Shown here: piece by piece, positions 22,679 through 41,399 of the stretch
Numbering within the stretch: the stretch's first letter is position 1
Layout of the letters: the number at the start of each line of letters is the position of its first letter
Position numbers and translations under genes: made by a program
NCBI GenBank assembly: GCA_020241865.1
Contig: GCA_020241865.1_4709.1
Direction: 5' to 3' (one strand)
Source: a phage
Length of the DNA stretch: 64,000 nt
Notes under the pieces: model-generated
The model's input: the letters and a program-made list of their open reading frames with translations, nothing else
What the model was told of the DNA's origin: nothing
The model's database searches: none

Positions 22679-23143
22679 TTACTCCTTAGTTCCTTCTTCG
22701 TTGGACGTATATTCCACATAGTGGAATTCACGGCCGTCGATAAACTTGAGTGCTACTGTAATAGGGAAATCACACGGCATAGCGGATTTCGTAAATGCGT
22801 TATCAGCAACATCAGATAACCGACGTATGGTATTCTCCCCTTTTGCTATGAATGGGAATTTAATGTTAATAAGGATACGGTGTTTGTAAATAGTAAAGAC
22901 GACAGTGCTGTCGAAATGTACCCCAGTTAAAGTCATTGTTGGGATACGTTTTACAACGGAGAAATGTGTCCCGTCAATATCGCTACTTCCCACTGACCAT
23001 TCATCGGAATTGCGTAGACTTTTCTTGAGGATATCAACGCTTTGCGTGACCACCTCAGCAACTTGTACGACGTACGTGTCTTTATGCATGTCGAAAAGTT
23101 CGTTGACGTTAGATTTGAATGAATAAACCGTTGCCATTATCAT
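22679..23143 (-). CDS. small hypothetical protein (154 aa)
   Basis: ORF; acidic C-terminus resembles neighbours. Confidence 0.65.
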   Translation of the reverse strand: MIMATVYSFKSNVNELFDMHKDTYVVQVAEVVTQSVDILKKSLRNSDEWSVGSSDIDGTHFSVVKRIPTMTLTGVHFDSTVVFTIYKHRILINIKFPFIAKGENTIRRLSDVADNAFTKSAMPCDFPITVALKFIDGREFHYVEYTSNEEGTKE

Positions 23144-23598
23144 ACCTCTTTTTTCATCTTCATCGGAACAGCGAGTGCTGCACTCGCTGTTCCATTATCC
23201 GGCTCATATTCCAATGTAACGAGATTGCAGCCGTCCGATAATTCATAATCGATCGCTAGGGGGAACGAGATACCGTGCGACTTTATGCATTTACCAAATG
23301 TCTCGTTGGCTGTATACATTAGAAGTTGCTTTGCGGCAAGCCCGTTTACGCTGAAAGGTAATTGTGCTGTCGCAGCGATACGATTATTGTAAACTCTGAT
23401 ATCGGTGATATCTACAATCGTAGCATTGCCGTGTTGTGTTGATGGAACGGATAGGTTGTAGAAGTAAGGTTCGGAGTCGGAATCGGGCTCGTTAAATAAT
23501 TCCCAGCACCCGTCCTCCTGCAATCTTACTTCGAGTATTTCAAAGCTTTTAATTATCGATTCTACCAGCTGCTCACCGTAAGAATCCCATGTCGTCAT
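23140..23598 (-). CDS. small hypothetical protein (152 aa)
   Basis: ORF; ATGA overlap with downstream gene. Confidence 0.65.
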   Translation of the reverse strand: MTTWDSYGEQLVESIIKSFEILEVRLQEDGCWELFNEPDSDSEPYFYNLSVPSTQHGNATIVDITDIRVYNNRIAATAQLPFSVNGLAAKQLLMYTANETFGKCIKSHGISFPLAIDYELSDGCNLVTLEYEPDNGTASAALAVPMKMKKEV

Positions 23599-33172: not shown

Positions 33173-35785
33173 TTAAGCGTCCGGCGTAAAATCAAAAGGA
33201 ATGTCCGTACGAATGATATCATAACGTTTTCCGAGGAAATAAAACTCTTCGGGAACCTGACCGGGAATAATGCTATCACCGATGAACTGCGGATACGCCC
33301 AGATGTACTGAGTGAGTCCTTCGAACATATCCAGGTTATTTGCGTGGTTACCCATGATACGTTTCCAGAGTTCGCGTTTATACGGCGTTTTAACATCGAA
33401 ACCATAAAGCGGTGCAAGATCTTCACCAGGAACAAATCCCAGGTAATAGTGAATCTGACTAACCGGGAAACCAAGCGTATCTCGCGGAATGGTGATCGCT
33501 TGCTCAGCTTTGGTGACATGCGTTTCAATAATCCAGTCGTAACACTCTGAATAGAACCGATCGAATTTCTCTGGATTATACCACGCTTTGGGAAGATTCA
33601 GTTTCTCCGTGAACGCATTCGACATGATCGTCGGTAAGAACGGAAGAACACCGGTTTTGATCTGCGTGTATTTCGATTTTACCCGGTTAGCCAAATTCCA
33701 GCAACTGTATCCTAACTGTTCGTTACAAAACTCAACGTAGAGATCGTAATCACCGCCGGATAATGGGTTGTTGATATCACCAATGTCTGCAGCGTATTTG
33801 TTGGGATATCGGTTATTGAAAGCCAGTTTGGTTTGGTAATCGTAGATACACGGTTTGTTGTTCGCTGTATTGATCCACCACCAGGGTTCACCCACCTGTA
33901 CACAAATGTCCTGGACATGAGGGTAAATAATATCGGCAAACGCGGTTAACACATCCCCTAACCACGCCATCGCCTGTTGGTTACATGGAGACAGCAACCA
34001 GGATGGTGGTGTATATCCGGTTGCTGCGATGTTTCCTTCCCAATCCTGCTGCGCCCACTCGAACGGGCATGCTGTACTCATCAATTCGTAACTTAAACTG
34101 ATGGTGACAGAGAAATGGTGTTTTGCAGCATATGCGGCGAAAGCTTCATGCCACGCGATACAGGGTGGATTTAATACATCCGTGGTGTTCACCAGTAACT
34201 TACCCGCACTTGGCGTCCAGACAGTATCGTAGAAATGCGACATTCCAACATAATGCACTAATTCATCTTGATACCCCGCATAAACCAGGTTCTCAAATAC
34301 GCGCTCCGGCGTGATGTTGTAATGGTCATCATAAGCGGTTATCGCACGAAGTTCGTGTGGTGTACAGTGGTGACGATTAACCGTCATTTCCTGATACACC
34401 CCATCGATAGGAAGAATCTCGAGGGTTAAACCGAGGTCGATTGGCGTTTCCAGATAGGTCGTTTCAGTCGCACCTTCCTTATAATGTCGAGAACTCATGC
34501 TGAACATCAACGATGCTACCGATTCGAGTTCGATAGGCTCGTCAGCATAGAACCCCGCCATTGCGTCATTGAAATCGATCGTTACGATTGCGCTTCTACC
34601 GTCTTCAGAGACATCGGTGGCGTATCGGGTTAATGAGATATACTGACGGCTATCGTCTTTGTGTACGACGGTTAAAACCGGCGGGTTTTCGGTATCTGCA
34701 AAGTTACGCTGATCGCCAGTAAACGTGATCTTCGCTTTAAAGATCAAACCGAATAACGACGTCATGGGATCATACGCAATACAACCGTGATCCAGCGTAT
34801 CCGTTGTCCGCCATTCTATCCCGACCAACCCGTTAGCGGTATGGCATCGCATATACGCATTAAGTACCATGTCTTCACTGACAACCGCGAAGTTCTCTGT
34901 TGACTGACCGTTGATAATCCAATACATCGGTTGCCAGAGGTTACGCGTACCTTTTGCGTAGCGGTAGGTTGGTGCGCCTTTGGGGTTGCCATTATTAAGA
35001 TGGAATACTGCAGTACCTTGATAATGGTCGTTCGTATTAATCGGAACACTGTAAGCGTCACCGAGGTCCGTACGTTCCACCTTCGTGACCGTTGCGTTTT
35101 CAAATAACCCACGCAGCGCGGGTAAACCGATATCTTCAGGCGCGTTTTCTCGACGAATCGCATCCGCGATGCGATGGGCTAAGGCGGGGTAAATAGCTTC
35201 ACCCTGTTGTAGGTTTGCAAGACCTACAAAGCGATCAGGGTCGATACCAGCAATCAATAACTCAACATCACCCTTCGTTCTATCGTCGTTAAGATATTTC
35301 AGTCCGGTAAGGTCAAGATGCTGAATAAGCGACAACAGGTTGTATTTACGGTTTTCAACAGTTAGTACAAGATCGCCTGCCCAAACCAAACTTCCCTCAT
35401 CCGCTGTTACTTTAACAGATTGTCGGCCTGTGGTAGACGTTGTTGTCGTTTTATTTAATTGTCCTTGTAGGAAGTCGGTTGCGAGGTCAAAGGCAATGCC
35501 GTAACGGTCAGCGACCGCTTGCATGATTTCACGTAACTGGGTATCTTCTTCAATGATAATCTTGACAGGTATTCCCAGGAACGCTTTAGCGAGGTCTCGT
35601 TTAACCAACGAGACGAATACGGATTTGTAGTATCGGCTTCCATCTTTCCCTTTAAAAAGAATGGAGGTTGTTTCGGGTGCCGATAGAACACGTGCAAATA
35701 CAACATCGTCGGAAGTAAGAGAAAGTCCGTTTTTCTCGTTGACCAATCCTAGTATTTCATTTTGCGCGGTTTCATGTAACTTCAT
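33173..35785 (-). CDS. tail fibre/tailspike-like protein (870 aa) with shared N-terminal anchor domain
   Basis: N-terminal ~130 aa (YxSVFVSLVKRDLAKAFLGIPVKI, RYGIAFDLATDFL) paralogous to N-termini of 41406..41933, 42090..43844, 47493..48323. Confidence 0.7.
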   Translation of the reverse strand: MKLHETAQNEILGLVNEKNGLSLTSDDVVFARVLSAPETTSILFKGKDGSRYYKSVFVSLVKRDLAKAFLGIPVKIIIEEDTQLREIMQAVADRYGIAFDLATDFLQGQLNKTTTTSTTGRQSVKVTADEGSLVWAGDLVLTVENRKYNLLSLIQHLDLTGLKYLNDDRTKGDVELLIAGIDPDRFVGLANLQQGEAIYPALAHRIADAIRRENAPEDIGLPALRGLFENATVTKVERTDLGDAYSVPINTNDHYQGTAVFHLNNGNPKGAPTYRYAKGTRNLWQPMYWIINGQSTENFAVVSEDMVLNAYMRCHTANGLVGIEWRTTDTLDHGCIAYDPMTSLFGLIFKAKITFTGDQRNFADTENPPVLTVVHKDDSRQYISLTRYATDVSEDGRSAIVTIDFNDAMAGFYADEPIELESVASLMFSMSSRHYKEGATETTYLETPIDLGLTLEILPIDGVYQEMTVNRHHCTPHELRAITAYDDHYNITPERVFENLVYAGYQDELVHYVGMSHFYDTVWTPSAGKLLVNTTDVLNPPCIAWHEAFAAYAAKHHFSVTISLSYELMSTACPFEWAQQDWEGNIAATGYTPPSWLLSPCNQQAMAWLGDVLTAFADIIYPHVQDICVQVGEPWWWINTANNKPCIYDYQTKLAFNNRYPNKYAADIGDINNPLSGGDYDLYVEFCNEQLGYSCWNLANRVKSKYTQIKTGVLPFLPTIMSNAFTEKLNLPKAWYNPEKFDRFYSECYDWIIETHVTKAEQAITIPRDTLGFPVSQIHYYLGFVPGEDLAPLYGFDVKTPYKRELWKRIMGNHANNLDMFEGLTQYIWAYPQFIGDSIIPGQVPEEFYFLGKRYDIIRTDIPFDFTPDA

Positions 35786-35807: not shown

Positions 35808-36449
35808 TTAAATGTACTGCTTACCGCCCACGAAGGAAGTTAACCAGTTCCCGCTGACGAGTTGTGATACCCAGCCTGGAACGGCTCTACCATTCTGGCT
35901 CATGATGTTACCACACCAACCAGGGAATCCGGGACGGATGTAATAGAAAGTTAAATTGTAGAGATGGCAATTCCATACCGCAACGTTATGTTTACCAGAA
36001 ACCGCTTTAAAGACAAACGCGACAGGTAACGGAGACGATAACAATTCGGTCACAGGGACGGCTGACCAGTTCGCATTCGCGTTCCATGGTTGCCAGGTAT
36101 GGCTGCGCGAGTCGCAATATACGTTACCGTTGTTACCGCGCCCACCCGCATTCCACCACAGCGACGGACTCATGTTCTTAAGTGAGGTAAATTGCTGCGG
36201 TGGAATATTAGGAATAATAACAGGGTTGGTACCTTGCCCATGTTTCTTTTCTTTTGCGTTCACATACCCGCTTATCGATTCGAGGTATTTGACACCAGGA
36301 TAATTATTCTGGACTTGTGTCGCAATATCACGAACATCGAACGTCCAGCAGATCATGGTGTTGTAGTAAGCATCGGTGTTGTCGTACCATGCGTTACCAT
36401 CTTGTAAACGTGCGCCACTATTCGGTGTTTTATCTGTGTTTATAGCCAT
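35808..36449 (-). CDS. hypothetical protein (213 aa), paralog of 36561..37277 (conserved C-terminal 45 aa)
   Basis: C-terminus RPGFPGWCGNIMSQNGRAVPGWVSQLVSGNWLTSFVGGKQY nearly identical to neighbour. Confidence 0.75.
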   Translation of the reverse strand: MAINTDKTPNSGARLQDGNAWYDNTDAYYNTMICWTFDVRDIATQVQNNYPGVKYLESISGYVNAKEKKHGQGTNPVIIPNIPPQQFTSLKNMSPSLWWNAGGRGNNGNVYCDSRSHTWQPWNANANWSAVPVTELLSSPLPVAFVFKAVSGKHNVAVWNCHLYNLTFYYIRPGFPGWCGNIMSQNGRAVPGWVSQLVSGNWLTSFVGGKQYI

Positions 36450-36547
36450 AGTGTTGTCCTATACTGCGATGATTGAGATATCGGATGCCGGATGTGTGTT
36501 GCCATCAGGTGGTACGTACAGAAACACCCACAGATAAAACAGTAGCT

Positions 36548-36578
36548 TATCTAACTTCAATTAAATTGAAGTTAGATA
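36548..36578 (-). terminator. perfect 15-bp inverted repeat (1-nt spacer), AT-rich hairpin overlapping stop codon of 36561..37277
   Basis: TATCTAACTTCAATT-A-AATTGAAGTTAGATA; followed on minus strand by U-rich sequence. Confidence 0.45.
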
Positions 36579-37277
36579 TTGTTTACCTCCAACAAACGAC
36601 GTTAACCAATTACCTGAAACAAGTTGCGATGCCCAGCCAGGCACTGCCCTACCGTTCTGGCTCATCACGTTACCTGCCCATCCCGGAAAACCAGGTCGGA
36701 AAATATATACTTGAATATGTGTTAAAGCGTTATCATTACCACCGCCAACAGCAACGTTACGACTCCCAGATGACGGGAAATATTCTTTTAAGAACAGAGG
36801 ATCGGTTGCTAATAAAGATGCGGGCCAAGGGTTCGCAGATGCATCAACATCGAATTCGGTCCATCGCCATTTACGTCCCGTGTCGAACCATGTCGATGTA
36901 CCACCACCCCTCACGACAAGATTGCGCGCATCATGGACATTATAAATTGATTCGATGTTACGCCATCCACCTTTTGCAGCGTTTGCTGCATAGCAAACCG
37001 CATTACCACCATTCTTCTTCTCGTAAACGGTTCGTTTGATATGAACACGGTCGATGAACGCTTCACCGTATTTGTTGACGAGCGTTTGTGCGATATCACG
37101 AAGATCGTGCATGTGAAAAGCGATGTCTTCGTTATGGAACCATGTTGTCTGGTTCCAGACGGTACCGTTTGGTTCGGCACACATCGATCGGATATTGTTG
37201 CGTTGATTAATCGCGATAAAACCCATTGTATACCTCGTTCCTATTCTCAAAAAGGAAATTTCATACGATGACGCCAT
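36561..37277 (-). CDS. hypothetical protein (~238 aa), paralog of 35808..36449
   Basis: ORF 36561..37313; N-terminal 12 codons of track ORF translate the GC hairpin; ATG 37277 has AGGAGG RBS. Confidence 0.7.
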   Translation of the reverse strand: MASSYEISFLRIGTRYTMGFIAINQRNNIRSMCAEPNGTVWNQTTWFHNEDIAFHMHDLRDIAQTLVNKYGEAFIDRVHIKRTVYEKKNGGNAVCYAANAAKGGWRNIESIYNVHDARNLVVRGGGTSTWFDTGRKWRWTEFDVDASANPWPASLLATDPLFLKEYFPSSGSRNVAVGGGNDNALTHIQVYIFRPGFPGWAGNVMSQNGRAVPGWASQLVSGNWLTSFVGGKQYLTSI

Positions 37278-37314
37278 AGCAGCTCCTCCTTCCCTTACGG
37301 GTTGGAGGAGCATA
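37275..37314 (-). terminator. GC-rich palindromic hairpin (family member, reverse orientation) containing the AGGAGG RBS of 36561..37277
   Basis: CTCCTCCTTCCC-TTAC-GGGTTGGAGGAG. Confidence 0.55.
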
Positions 37315-37319
37315 CTTAA

Positions 37320-37826
37320 TTACTTACTGATAACCTCAACGGAGTTGGGATCAGCGATCAATGCACGATCGGTAGAACAGTTGAAGAAGACCATACCAAC
37401 ACCATCACCGTTCGAGTTCAGGGTTGAACTTACATAAGACAGGGTTGGTTTATTCATGCGGTAGAAGCGTTCGCTGGTAGTGGTATTGAACCCCAGATCA
37501 ACGTAGTCTTTCACCGTGGTGTACAACTGTGTGGACTCGAAAACGGTTACCGGAGAGTCAACGGTAAACTGACTGCCTTCATCCACAACCAGAACTTTAT
37601 CGTTCCAGATTTCAGTGGTTGAAAACTTCGGTTTCCAGTGTTCGAATTCCTGGGTTGCGCCCCAGCAAGAATAAACAGCGAGATTGCTGTTCTTCTCAAC
37701 AGGTTTCAACCCCACCAGTTGTGTCAGGTCTTTATCCAGGTTCGGTAAGCCTTCCAGCGTAGCGCACCCACCCAGAGAAAGTACCATCAACATACCAAGA
37801 ACGATCGCGCAGAGTTTTTTCATCAT
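37320..37826 (-). CDS. predicted lipoprotein (~168 aa)
   Basis: signal peptide MMKKLCAIVLGMLMVLSLGGC with lipobox-like LGGC; ATG 37826 with AGGAA RBS; immediately downstream of tail fibre gene. Confidence 0.7.
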   Translation of the reverse strand: MMKKLCAIVLGMLMVLSLGGCATLEGLPNLDKDLTQLVGLKPVEKNSNLAVYSCWGATQEFEHWKPKFSTTEIWNDKVLVVDEGSQFTVDSPVTVFESTQLYTTVKDYVDLGFNTTTSERFYRMNKPTLSYVSSTLNSNGDGVGMVFFNCSTDRALIADPNSVEVISK

Positions 37827-37874: not shown

Positions 37875-40800
37875 TTACTTTTTGAGCGCTTTAAGTTCTT
37901 CTTCCAACGCTTCCACTTTTGCCGTAAGCTTCTGTACTTGTTTGATTAATGGAACCACCAAACGTTCGTACATGACACCTTCAGCGACGAGTCCGTTAGA
38001 AGAAACGATAGCGGGGTCATCTTCTTCTGTTGCATCACGCCAGTGCACGTACTGCGGTGCGATCTCGCCAACCTCTTCAGCAATCAACCCATACCAACCC
38101 CAATCCTTGTTGTCTGCTTCACATGTAGAACGATACCACACAGGACGCATCTCCAATACTTTATCCGCTTGTTCATCCGTGATATTCTCGATATCTTTCT
38201 TATAGCGACGCGACGACGTTGAACGAAACACATTGTTGATCCCAGAAACAGGACTGATATACATGTTAGCCCCGCTGGTTGTAGTGCTAATGTCCCATAC
38301 CGCAAATCCGCCGTTACTCCCATTTTTTACGATCAATGTGTTGGCAATAATGTCCAGGTTATTGTCGTAACCGGTTAATTGTCTTTCCGTTACATAACTG
38401 GATAGATTGACCGAGTAGTTCTTACTGTTATAACAACGACGCCATCCTGGGCTGTTGGTACTGCCATTATAGTTGTCGTAGCTATAAATGAACTCGGAGT
38501 TGGTTTTCGCACCACTGACGGAAGACGTGGTTGCGGTCGTAACACGGATGGTATAGTTTGTCATCCCGAAGCTAACGACCTCGATAACAGCACCAGCCAG
38601 AGGGATAATACCGCACTTGGTTTCACTGTCTGGGATGTATGCGCTGTCGGCAGCTGCGAAGGAGCAACGTGCGACCCAGGCGCGGGTATTGAATGCACCT
38701 TGGTTTTGCAACAACGTGATAAACGATGAGGTCGTAATCGAGCTGTTATTATCACCGGTGATCAACCAGCCGGTCGGGCATGCGGTTGCGCCAACGTTTT
38801 TCGCTGTTAACGTGATGTTCTGCGATCCGTCGAAGGCTACGCCACTGATAGTACGCGCAGTCTGCAGTTTCGTCGCCGTTGCTGCGTTCCCTGATGTGTT
38901 CTGGTTCCCTGCGGCGTTAACACCCGGCAGATTGATATTCGCACTACCGTCGAAAGACACCCCACCAATGGTGCGGGCGGTTTTCAGTTTTGTCGCCGTG
39001 GCGGCATTACCGGTCGTGTCTTGGTTACCGGTGGTGTTTACCCCAGGTAGGTTGATATTGGCCGTTCCGTTAAATGAAACACCACCAATCGTCCGTGCCG
39101 TTTGCAACTTCGTTGCGGATGCCGCATTCCCCGTGGTGTTTTGGTTACCTGTTGTATTCACACCTGGGATACTATCCTTAGATGTGTAGATCTGTGCCCA
39201 TTCCGACCAGTTCGCATCTGATGCATCACGACGCGAACGTAGGTAAGCTGGAGCGTGTGCGCCTGAAGTACCTGACCATCCAATAAGGATCTCACCTTCA
39301 CCTACTGCGGTTGCTCCTTTAAGATGAACAACGTTACCGTAGGCTGTAGGGTATCCGTTATTGTACGCTTCATACATCTGGATACCCGTATTGCTGCCCT
39401 GGGTCGCATTAGCTAAAGCGGTGACCCGTCCCTTGGAAGCGAGCACGTTAATGCTAAAGCTAATATCGGTTGTACCGTCAAAGGCGACCCCATTAATCCT
39501 CCGCGCTGTTTGGAGTTTCGTGGCAGTAGCCGCATTACCAGAGGTACTCTGATTGCCTGCTTTGTTCACACCTGGTAAATCAATGTTGGCGGTTCCATCA
39601 AAGGACACGCCCCCTATGGTTCTCGCCGTCTGAAGTTTTGTTGCTGAACCAGCGTTTCCGGAAGTGCTTTGATTACCCGCCGCGTTGACACCTGGTAGGT
39701 TAATGCTAGCAGAACCATCAAAAGAAACTCCACCGATCGTAATAGCTGTTCGCAACTTCGTGGCTGTCGCAGCGTTACCCGTCGTATTCTGATTACCAGC
39801 TGCATTGACGCCAGGTAATGCGATATCAGCTGTGCCATCGAACGCGACACCTCCGATTTTACGGGCGGTTTGTAGCTTGGTTGCTGTAGCAGCATTACCG
39901 CTGGTATTTTGCGTACCGGCTTTATTTACACCAGGAAGATCGATGTTAGCAGAACCATCGAAGCTGACGCCACCTATCGTTCTTGCAGTAGCAAGTTTAG
40001 CGGCTGTAGCAGCGACGTTACCGACTTTTAACCATTCTCCCCATGGACCATCCACACCGTTCCATGATGCCGTTAAACTGCGCACGTATATGTTTCCTGT
40101 ACGTACTGTGTAACGTTGTGTTCCACCGAATTGACCGGCTGGGAGCACTTCGATGTAACCTACAGCATTTGCTTCAGGGAAATTGTGGGCAGCATCGGCA
40201 TTCGTTGATGTTTGTTTGGACCAAATACCCACAGACGCTTCAACCGGACCGTAGGTATTCAGGTTTGCATCGGTTGGGAGTTGTCCTCTGAAACGACGGA
40301 ACGACGAGGCGTTAATTCCCAATATCGTTTGCATCCCTTCAACACCGGACTGCTGTAAGAGAGCGCGTGCGGTAGAAGTGATCGTTGCAAGCGCTACTTT
40401 ATCAGCACCTGTGAAATACGGTAATTTATTCGCTGATGTTGTTAGTCCAGAAAGGGCTGTGAGCAAAGCGTTCAGCGGTTGTTTGCCAGCTAAAGCGTTT
40501 GTTACAGTTGTCGCGAAGTTAGGATCGTTACCTAACGCTTGCGCCAATTCATTGAGTGTGTCCAACGCTTCAGGAGACGATCCGACAAGCGCTGCGATAG
40601 CACGCATCACAAATTCGGTATTCGCAATCTGCTGACTTTTATCGCCTTCGGCTGCGGTTGGTGTTGTCGGCTTATCGGTAAATGCCGGGCTAGAAAGATC
40701 CGCTTTAGCGCTAATTTGTGTTGCTAGGACTTTCCCGGCTTTCGCGGATAGTGCGAGTACTTCACTATCACTGTTCGTCGCCGAGGTTAACTGAACTAAC

Positions 40801-41399
40801 CCTTTACGTGTGGTACTAGCGTCCACTGCTGTGTACTTTCCTTTCGCAACATCCATCACAGCTTTAACTGCTTTTGATGTTGCGGCTTTGGTTTCGTCGT
40901 CACTATTTGTTTCGCTGCTAAGGATCGTTAATCCCCGTTTCTCGGTGGTCGCATCTGGTAAGAATGCGTCACTAACAACCTTCAATTCGATCGCATCGGT
41001 ATTGCTTACGACAACAAATACCTGACAATTTAACACACGTCCTGCCCCTTCGGAAGGCAGTGGTTTGTACCCTTCTGGCGCATTGCCGACAACGACAAGT
41101 TCACCCTGATCGTCGTACAGACCGATCTCACGCACCCAGAACCCACCTTGACTGGCGGGAATAATGCCTTCAACAACAATCCGGGTTGTGTCGTCAACAT
41201 CAATGTGGATGTTAGAAACTTCCCCACGATAAACTTCGTGTACGAGCGCTGTTTGGCTAACATCGGGGGTTGGTGTAGAGCCGTTTCCGTCACCAACAGC
41301 AAAATGTGTGATTCTTAGTTTCTCACCGTCAGGAAGTAGCGCTGCGGCAATACGTTCAGCGCCTTTATCGGTAATGACCGTTTTATAAGTTGTACTCAT
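37875..41399 (-). CDS. long tail fibre (1174 aa) with tandem 38-aa repeats and C-terminal S74-type intramolecular chaperone domain
   Basis: TTRKGLVQLTSATNSDSE fibre motif (cf. lambda Stf); ~8 repeats of ATKLQTARTIGGVSFDGSANINLPGVN; C-terminal SSRRYKKDIENI...WGWYGLIAEEVGEIAP matches auto-cleaving chaperone signature. Confidence 0.85.
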   Translation of the reverse strand: MSTTYKTVITDKGAERIAAALLPDGEKLRITHFAVGDGNGSTPTPDVSQTALVHEVYRGEVSNIHIDVDDTTRIVVEGIIPASQGGFWVREIGLYDDQGELVVVGNAPEGYKPLPSEGAGRVLNCQVFVVVSNTDAIELKVVSDAFLPDATTEKRGLTILSSETNSDDETKAATSKAVKAVMDVAKGKYTAVDASTTRKGLVQLTSATNSDSEVLALSAKAGKVLATQISAKADLSSPAFTDKPTTPTAAEGDKSQQIANTEFVMRAIAALVGSSPEALDTLNELAQALGNDPNFATTVTNALAGKQPLNALLTALSGLTTSANKLPYFTGADKVALATITSTARALLQQSGVEGMQTILGINASSFRRFRGQLPTDANLNTYGPVEASVGIWSKQTSTNADAAHNFPEANAVGYIEVLPAGQFGGTQRYTVRTGNIYVRSLTASWNGVDGPWGEWLKVGNVAATAAKLATARTIGGVSFDGSANIDLPGVNKAGTQNTSGNAATATKLQTARKIGGVAFDGTADIALPGVNAAGNQNTTGNAATATKLRTAITIGGVSFDGSASINLPGVNAAGNQSTSGNAGSATKLQTARTIGGVSFDGTANIDLPGVNKAGNQSTSGNAATATKLQTARRINGVAFDGTTDISFSINVLASKGRVTALANATQGSNTGIQMYEAYNNGYPTAYGNVVHLKGATAVGEGEILIGWSGTSGAHAPAYLRSRRDASDANWSEWAQIYTSKDSIPGVNTTGNQNTTGNAASATKLQTARTIGGVSFNGTANINLPGVNTTGNQDTTGNAATATKLKTARTIGGVSFDGSANINLPGVNAAGNQNTSGNAATATKLQTARTISGVAFDGSQNITLTAKNVGATACPTGWLITGDNNSSITTSSFITLLQNQGAFNTRAWVARCSFAAADSAYIPDSETKCGIIPLAGAVIEVVSFGMTNYTIRVTTATTSSVSGAKTNSEFIYSYDNYNGSTNSPGWRRCYNSKNYSVNLSSYVTERQLTGYDNNLDIIANTLIVKNGSNGGFAVWDISTTTSGANMYISPVSGINNVFRSTSSRRYKKDIENITDEQADKVLEMRPVWYRSTCEADNKDWGWYGLIAEEVGEIAPQYVHWRDATEEDDPAIVSSNGLVAEGVMYERLVVPLIKQVQKLTAKVEALEEELKALKK
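38790..40025 (-). repeat. in-frame tandem ~114-bp (38-aa) repeats inside tail fibre gene, two blocks (approx 38790-39180 and 39450-40025)
   Basis: periodic DNA/protein repeats; antisense ORFs here are repeat artefacts. Confidence 0.8.

Follow-up and report, generated by a model that had tools for sequence, protein, structure and literature searches.

The DNA analysed here, a window of 64,000 nucleotides, is 92-96% identical to that of Escherichia phage vB_EcoM_Goslar, and the phage from which it comes is a close relative of Goslar, a nucleus-forming jumbo phage. Within a stretch in which every gene lies on the minus strand, the window carries two adjacent open reading frames (ORFs) whose products end in nearly the same sequence, the upstream one closing within a perfect palindrome. 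ORF A (35808..36449, 213 amino acids), the ortholog of Goslar gp87, encodes a variable head (residues 1-172), predicted to be a beta-jelly-roll, followed by a conserved tail. ORF B (36561..37226, 221 amino acids), the upstream paralog, has no counterpart in Goslar and is held by approximately 720 bases that are present in the window and absent from Goslar. Both frames lie where the first-pass annotation had placed them, but the upstream in-frame ATG at 37277, with which it had opened ORF B, is less likely to be the start than the ATG at 37226 (MGFIAIN...), which has GAGG as a ribosome-binding site (RBS) 8 nucleotides upstream. The MGF start is also used in the gene calls on related contigs (P0003, P0004, L016, L024); in Goslar, the frame upstream of MGF is closed by a stop codon, and the DNA there is conserved and non-coding. 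The palindrome, TATCTAACTTCAATT-A-AATTGAAGTTAGATA (36548..36578; 15+1+15), is exact, as had been reported, and so is its overlap with the stop of the upstream copy, given that the ORF B stop codon (36561-36563) sits at its centre.

ORFs A and B encode ancient paralogs. BLASTP aligns the two proteins at 38% identity (E = 2e-34), and a split at the tail motif gives identities of 27% for the heads and 93% (38/41 residues) for the tails, in agreement with the early description of a pair that diverges over most of its length and ends alike. The shared terminus is real, although it spans 41 residues (RPGFPGW...GGKQY) rather than the 45 first given; it is encoded at 35814..35936 in ORF A (RPGFPGWCGNIMSQNGRAVPGWVSQLVSGNWLTSFVGGKQY) and at 36576..36698 in ORF B, and its consensus, PGFPGW..MSQNG.AVPGW.SQL.SGNWLT.F.GGK.Y, is rich in glycine and tryptophan. 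At the DNA level, the two blocks are 73% identical, with proportions of differing synonymous (pS) and nonsynonymous (pN) sites of 0.91 and 0.08, respectively, and the same codon is used at 9 of the 34 conserved residues that allow a codon choice, compared to 11.7 +/- 2.7 expected for independent draws from the codon usage of the phage. Because the synonymous sites are saturated while the peptide is near-identical, the duplication is old, and the tail has been maintained by strong purifying selection. Recent gene conversion, considered as the source of the identical tails, is ruled out by this saturation and by the codon identity, which is at the level of independent draws. Comparison by eye with the DUF7941 proteins of the window found no similarity between the tail and the DUF7941 linker that docks on neighbouring protomers.

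The family to which both proteins belong is rare. ORF A is 96% identical to Goslar gp87 (Goslar_00087 / HOV27_gp087, YP_009820772.1), an uncharacterised hypothetical protein, and a profile made from A, B and Goslar gp87 recovered 8 clusters in 5.8 billion proteins, an exhaustive HMMER search 13 representatives in 1.84 billion proteins, and a search of a large protein database with the motif alone a single fragment (P0019). A and B align over their full length with all 13 family members, which share an N-terminal domain with W21, FDLR and KKH(G/S) motifs and the tail motif PGFPGW..MSQNG.AVPGW.SQL..GNWLT; among the members found, the family is restricted to loci that look like those of chimalliviruses. 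Pfam, PHROGs, NCBIfam and the PDB sequences contain no match to the family: Pfam has no hit to A or B at E <= 0.1 or to any of the 15 members at E <= 10, and NCBIfam none at E <= 10. In particular, A and B have no hit to DUF7941 (PF25613), which three of their neighbours match at 1.7e-16 to 2.1e-44, and no Pfam or PHROG hit to Caudo_TAP (PF02413). The short members (213-235 amino acids) end just past the motif, whereas the long ones (316-370 amino acids; the Serratia phage PCH45 protein, P0006-8, P0010 and P0012-14) continue into one of three unrelated-looking C-terminal domains, the motif then being interdomain. The gp87 family is new and uncharacterised, and its presumed kind, the modular host-recognition accessory proteins of phages, is already known.

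An AlphaFold2 model built on an alignment of 15 sequences presents residues 1-172 as a confident beta-sandwich (pLDDT, the predicted local distance difference test, about 90; pTM, the predicted template modelling score, 0.78), whereas pLDDT drops below 50 over the conserved segment 176-206, after which a short final strand rejoins the sandwich. In the model of a long form (P0013), the motif and the C-domain are below pLDDT 55, which makes this model uninformative on the role of the motif. The low confidence of the tail fits what would be expected of a segment that becomes ordered on a partner. The predicted beta-jelly-roll can be superposed on solved members of the CBM96 / 'DNRLRE' group of carbohydrate-binding modules (CBMs; PDB 7vbo, 8wab), although sequence identity to these and to other jelly-roll CBMs is only 6-11%. 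On this model, the likeness to CBMs is one of fold class and not of family membership, because the Foldseek search against the PDB is non-significant. CBM96-type modules carry an 'FDLS' strand motif that resembles the invariant 'FDLR' of the family, a possible lead. Compared to CBMs, including those carried on phage tail proteins, the gp87-family module is set apart by forming a small free-standing protein with a Gly/Trp-rich tail.

Comparison of related loci indicates how this pair came to differ between close phages. The slot upstream of A is an exchangeable cassette that can hold a type B gene, a type C gene or a deletion remnant. Type B together with A is found in the window, in its duplicate L016 (the same phage at 99.99% identity, not counted as independent), and in L002, L018-L021, L023 and L024; in Goslar, L010 and L012, the slot retains only a 12-codon remnant of a type C gene; and in L003, an intact type C gene precedes an A copy that is nonsense-mutated and starts with GTG. 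Locus L007 (4199-7587) carries a single B-like copy (70% identical) and lacks A and the gp86 homolog. The orthologous heads evolve under purifying selection, with ratios of nonsynonymous to synonymous substitution rates (dN/dS) of 0.02-0.16; diversifying selection on the heads was looked for and is not seen in these orthologs. Between A of the window and its L024 counterpart, A', the heads are 71% identical with pS of 0.70, whereas the tails are 100% identical with pS of 0.04, and a diverged head adjoining an identical tail with low pS indicates a recombination breakpoint at the head/tail border; the Goslar A copy has a short mosaic patch in its last ~90 nucleotides. Because the heads are under purifying selection and the breakpoint and the mosaic patch lie where they do, head variation is a product of cassette exchange rather than diversifying selection, with the tail-coding block serving as the recombination junction.

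Several further observations bear on the history of the slot. The 177-bp 'intergenic' region of Goslar (L001 9851-9960; also in L010 and L012) contains an RBS and the first 12 codons of the type C gene (MAIARTIGFTSS), joined in frame to the final codons of an extension ORF that is described below, a deletion scar that may have formed through a CACGC microhomology; P0016 derives from this gene by another in-frame deletion. The type A copy of L003 (2441-3082), with its GTG start and in-frame TGA (…SPSL*WNAGG…), is an apparent pseudogene or else a sequencing error in a single Logan assembly. In L007, the gene order is DUF7941-DUF285 protein, gp88 homolog, B-like copy and gp85 homolog, the fibre/type-A/gp86 block being missing, and from this block loss the host-recognition cluster is seen to be highly plastic. 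In L021, a 2.9-kb metagenomic contig, the type A copy turns into unrelated sequence after '...LTSFV' (about 2125-2260), probably an assembly chimera or an inversion, and this aberrant ORF A end was left out of the comparison.

The surroundings of the pair are those of a fibre cluster, as the first-pass annotation had it when it placed the two genes between fibre genes. The minus-strand order is a DUF7941-DUF285 protein, a small DUF7941 protein, the tail fibre (37875..41399, 1174 amino acids; Phage_tail_fib, Phage_fiber_2 and a C-terminal Peptidase_S74 intramolecular chaperone), the gp88 homolog (37320..37823, 167 amino acids, with a lipoprotein-type signal, …LSLGGC), ORF B, ORF A and the gp86 homolog (33173..35785, 870 amino acids), a predicted host-recognition protein that combines DUF7941, an NCTSP N-domain and a TIM barrel. 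A gp88 homolog lies directly upstream of the position of the pair in all Goslar-like loci, and in the Goslar-like phages the family gene is inside the fibre/DUF7941 cluster. Farther afield, in PCH45 and in L004, a 237-kb metagenomic jumbo-phage contig, the family gene directly follows an S74-type fibre gene, and in PCH45, SPLA10 and Moabite the slot is flanked by phiKZ gp131-like and gp164-like virion or baseplate genes, the Moabite slot carrying only the C-domain of the long form. An obligate two-gene module of gp88 and gp87 was considered and rejected, given that the neighbour of P0009 is unrelated to gp88 and that PCH45, SPLA10 and L004 are arranged otherwise. The fibre gene itself shows a module swap: the fibre of the window ends in Peptidase_S74 and has no separate assembly gene, whereas Goslar has a gpS-like fibre with a Caudo_TAP gene next after it; the window fibre and that of Goslar (L001 10576-14966) have their N-terminus and repeat region in common, at 64-88% DNA identity, and the L010 fibre shares the N-terminus (99%) but not the C-terminal 250 amino acids.

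Evidence on the location of these proteins comes from the published proteome of Goslar virions (Table S4; bioRxiv 10.64898/2026.04.21.720040). Absence from virions had been named at the outset as the finding that would speak against an adhesin; the ortholog of ORF A, HOV27_gp087, is detected in the preparation of purified virions, at ~19 copies, with 4 peptides, 29% coverage and estimates of 12.7 / 19.1 / 30 copies per virion. Among the neighbours in the same table, the fibre gp090 is present at ~43 copies, the fibre chaperone gp089 at ~52 and gp086 at ~4.5, whereas gp088, at ~737 copies and 78% coverage, is among the most abundant unmodelled proteins of the purified virions (bioRxiv 10.64898/2026.04.21.720040). 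The preprint neither discusses nor models gp87; its map shows a peripheral baseplate ring and fibres without assigned proteins, and its authors propose that DUF7941 proteins form a cloud of host-recognition filaments in that region (bioRxiv 10.64898/2026.04.21.720040). The gp88 homolog has an N-terminus of the lipoprotein signal peptide type (MKKLCAIVLGMLMVLSLGGC...), and yet Goslar gp88 is abundant in purified virions; it may be a genuine component of the virion whose N-terminus is unusual, or else a lipoprotein of the membrane, for example, one involved in superinfection exclusion, that co-purifies on vesicles.

We tentatively favour an interpretation under which A and B are low-copy host-recognition proteins of the peripheral baseplate or fibres, a reading to which we would give somewhat less than an even chance. 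Each protein would consist of a ~170-residue beta-jelly-roll head resembling CBMs and the 41-residue tail; the shared tail would dock both on one conserved site of the virion, or oligomerise them there, and the divergent heads would bind different glycans of the host surface, such that two copies broaden or alter host recognition. The original suggestion of an adhesin with a conserved attachment end and a variable specificity end thus fits the fold, the selection, the synteny and the published proteomics, although it is unproven. A familiar analogue is gp38 of T2- and S16-type phages, a small adhesin encoded beside the fibre gene, with an N-terminal part for attachment to the fibre and a C-terminal receptor-binding part with glycine-rich motifs. 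Like gp38, A and B are small and encoded beside a fibre gene, with a conserved part proposed for attachment, a variable part proposed for the receptor, and diversity generated via module exchange. Unlike in gp38, the conserved end is C-terminal, so that the polarity is reversed; there is no PHROG, Pfam or fold relation and there are no glycine-rich receptor-binding motifs; and, with a constant A/B tail, Goslar and this phage have different fibre tips, attachment to the fibre tip being only a proposal.

A number of points weigh against this interpretation. On the side of the head, the jelly-roll is a very common fold, Foldseek against the PDB gave no hit below E = 1e-3, and no member of the family reaches any CBM hidden Markov model even at E <= 10. 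As for the tail, its low model confidence may simply reflect a shallow alignment of 14-15 sequences; in the long forms it is an interdomain segment and not a terminus; and in the SPLA10 member the tryptophans of the motif are replaced. With regard to location, thymidylate synthase is found at ~20 copies, the level of gp87, in the same preparation, in which the authors note co-purifying non-virion assemblies (bioRxiv 10.64898/2026.04.21.720040), and P0009 (L025) adjoins thymidylate synthase among small, non-structural-looking genes, with no fibre neighbour.

The alternative that fares best, albeit one that we regard as rather improbable, is that the tail serves self-association, for example, trimerisation, or forms an interdomain 'neck', making the proteins free-standing oligomeric lectins or small fibres in which A and B perhaps co-assemble. 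The position of the motif in the long forms, between the head and a further C-terminal domain, would be readily explained in this way, and so would its internal GxW periodicity (PGW...PGW...GNW) and the final strand that rejoins the sandwich after the motif in both models. Moabite gp147, from the same slot, begins with repeated '..GGAWR..' units ahead of the shared C-domain. However, the motif has no confident structure, the likeness to the Moabite repeats was judged by eye only, and near-identity of tails between paralogs whose heads are 27% identical is more typical of a shared external partner. Moabite gp147 (L015 5824-6351, 175 amino acids) is of note in its own right: three N-terminal 'Y.N..G.W' repeats, which by eye loosely resemble the GxW periodicity of the tail motif, precede a C-domain of the PCH45 long-form type.

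We consider it unlikely that the proteins are not virion components at all and act instead in or on the infected cell, perhaps with gp88 as a partner, for example, to modify its surface or in glycan-directed superinfection exclusion, the mass spectrometric signal being contamination. The lipoprotein-type signal of gp88 and its constant adjacency in Goslar-like loci would suit such a role, as would the similar estimated copy number of non-structural proteins in the virion preparation and the placing of P0009 among non-structural-looking genes. Nevertheless, no signal peptide or transmembrane segment is visible in the sequences of A or B, and for that reason a role at the surface would be without an export route; moreover, the pairing with gp88 is not kept outside the Goslar-like phages, and the neighbours are structural genes in most lineages.

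Likewise doubtful, and ranked below the foregoing, is a function in the assembly of fibres or the baseplate, as chaperones or scaffolds whose traces in virions are carry-over. The gene is downstream of fibre genes, and the presence of the Goslar fibre chaperone gp89 at ~52 copies per virion indicates that assembly factors do show in this dataset. The chaperone option offered in the first-pass annotation nonetheless finds little support: there is no match to Caudo_TAP or any other chaperone family, the CBM-like jelly-roll is unlike known tail-fibre assembly proteins, the fibre next to the gene has an S74 intramolecular chaperone of its own in the window, PCH45 and L004, and Goslar keeps a copy despite a dedicated tail-fibre assembly protein (TAP), which both Goslar and L003 encode by a separate, bona fide gene within this cluster.

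The second element of the locus is the palindrome, the longest perfect one in the window; by our own arithmetic, chance alone would place about 6e-5 perfect 15+15 palindromes in a sequence of 64 kb. Its arm sequence has no other copy in the window. A second perfect palindrome with 14-nucleotide arms (GGAACAGCGAGTGC-T-GCACTCGCTGTTCC) lies at 23165-23193, within the 3' end of a minus-strand ORF (23140..23598) and ~25 nucleotides before its stop, which overlaps the start of the next gene. In the mRNA, the ORF B palindrome folds into a 14-bp hairpin of -15.2 kcal/mol (z = -6.8) with the UAA at the apex; the final codons of ORF B (YLTSI) lie in the 5' arm, and the right arm is an inverted copy of them. 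The hairpin is present in every B-type locus with a downstream A copy and is absent from type C, which has no right arm, and from the B-only locus L007. Across relatives, 92.9% of the cells of the helix pair, and two pair changes are compensatory: A-U to G-C in L002 and L023, where the change in the coding arm is synonymous, and U-A to A-U in L020. In the other loci, it matches at 14/15 or, in L020, is shortened to 8 bp, and the perfect 15/15 is thus particular to this phage. The palindrome is better read as a conserved RNA hairpin of the B cassette, within a structured region between the two cistrons, than as a DNA site with a generic regulatory role.

In its simplest reading, this hairpin, which marks the end of B, would be a gene-end terminator or a 3' stabiliser, a sort of element frequent among such phages. 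In the related chimallivirus 201phi2-1, 132 transcript ends have been mapped, with the intrinsic ones bearing hairpins of -6.9 to -19.3 kcal/mol (PMC11512511). Like the gene-end hairpins and terminators of 201phi2-1 and phiKZ, the B hairpin is stable, lies at a gene end and has an energy within that range (PMC11512511). It departs from them in being AU-rich, in overlapping both the stop and the five codons before it, and in lacking a U-tract next to it on the mRNA strand. Hairpins also end neighbouring genes, after the gp88 homolog (37282-37311) and after P0009 in L025. The former, a strong hairpin (GCUCCUCC..CCC-GUAA-GGG..GGAGGAGC, minus strand) located 8 nucleotides past the stop of the gp88 homolog and without a U-tract, is kept in Goslar, L003, L010, L012 and L024, and the conserved stretch beyond it contains the ATG at 37277. 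Counting against a terminator and against the case from covariation, the sequences compared are on average 91% identical, which makes the statistics weak; the mRNA-strand stem is AU-rich, with 3/14 G-C pairs and a first U-run 9 nucleotides past the stem; and the structure does not qualify as a canonical intrinsic (Rho-independent) terminator on the mRNA strand, the scan flagging a terminator on the plus strand only.

The weakest of the alternatives, and one that we deem very improbable, is that the palindrome works as DNA, whether as an operator bound by a protein, as a cruciform or hotspot of recombination, or as a boundary of the cassette: its exact symmetry in the window, its location inside a variably present block with several independent deletions at the locus (Goslar-type, P0016, L007 and L020), and the T-rich run that follows on the plus strand and scores as terminator-like would be compatible with this, and the compensatory changes could also come from hairpin-templated mutation without selection, but the arm sequence is unique in the window, both arm changes are compensatory and so favour pairing over half-site recognition, the endpoints of deletions and insertions do not coincide with the palindrome, and in the relatives its symmetry is reduced.

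Beyond the hairpin, the RNA between the two genes is predicted to form a long interrupted helix of 27 pairs, P2, between a 5' arm at 36514..36540 and a 3' arm at 36427..36466, the latter holding the Shine-Dalgarno (SD) sequence of ORF A (36457-36460), its AUG (36447-36449) and codons 2-8; a small internal hairpin in the P2 loop, P3 (36487..36510), has one compensatory change, in L020. Pairing is kept in 94.8% of cells over seven loci, compared to 33-50% with slid partners; it weighs against the helix that it is nearly invariant, with zero compensatory changes. In partition-function folding, the probability that the SD of ORF A is unpaired is 0.03-0.04 in the typical loci with B and A (the window, L018, L021 and L002), compared to 0.31-0.44 in single-copy Goslar-type loci; in L020, it is 0.65. 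The Goslar gp87 locus differs in having one copy only, no ORF B, no palindrome and no SD-masking helix. Together, the hairpin and the helix that buries the SD probably keep independent translation of A low in this phage. The arrangement recalls the 'Min Jou' interaction between the coat and replicase genes of MS2, in which long-range pairing masks translation of the downstream gene and translation of the upstream gene relieves it. As in MS2, the downstream SD would be buried by pairing with an upstream segment, and in variants without the apex stop, ribosomes would cross the masking segment and stop 10 nucleotides before the AUG. Unlike in MS2, the helix here is a prediction with no compensatory changes, and the upstream ORF of the window stops before the masking arm.

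The base that decides between these variants is the centre of the palindrome, which is T in the window, L018/L019 and L020 and A in L002, L021, L023 and L024. With T, the codon is TAA, and ORF B is closed at 221 amino acids; with A, it is AAA, and ORF B runs to 255 amino acids, through 34 more codons (KLKLEKLLFYLWVFLYVPPD...; 36459..36560 in the window, where the extension is latent), to a UAG that overlaps the SD of ORF A, 10 nucleotides before the AUG. All three, B, the extension and A, are in the same frame. Of the variable sites in the first half of the extension, 8/10 are synonymous, whereas in the second half most changes are nonsynonymous, a test that is confounded by the constraint of RNA pairing. 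The pattern suggests that the centre base may determine whether translation of A is coupled to that of B. Ribosomal bypassing or programmed readthrough at the apex stop was considered, given the shared frame, but no supporting feature was found; in T4 gene 60, the stop codon is in the stem and not at the apex. It is conceivable, if quite unlikely, that the base at the centre works as a natural toggle: T would keep the SD-masking helix closed, A would, by way of the hydrophobic 34-residue extension, couple synthesis of protein A to that of B, and through hairpin-templated inversion the switch might recur at elevated frequency, giving phage populations two heritable states of adhesin expression. 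Such recurrence can be conceived because inverting a perfect palindrome changes its central base alone, here between the complementary T and A. Inversion of the whole palindrome as the actual origin of the T/A difference is not supported, in that the variants with T and those with A at the centre show no swap of the 14/15 mismatch.

Goslar-like chimalliviruses are models of the phage nucleus and candidates for therapy with a broad host range, and the fibre and peripheral baseplate region is the part of their virion that lacks a resolved structure. For this region, the locus described here supplies two candidate accessory host-recognition proteins, and an exchangeable cassette slot with a conserved tail as the splice point explains the differences between the loci of close phages. 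The 41-residue peptide is usable as bait for the docking site, and, if it is true that the heads bind glycans, head swapping would offer a simple route to the retargeting of these phages. The intercistronic RNA, with its apex stop and masked RBS, provides a compact example of a means by which a phage might adjust two alternative adhesins relative to each other.

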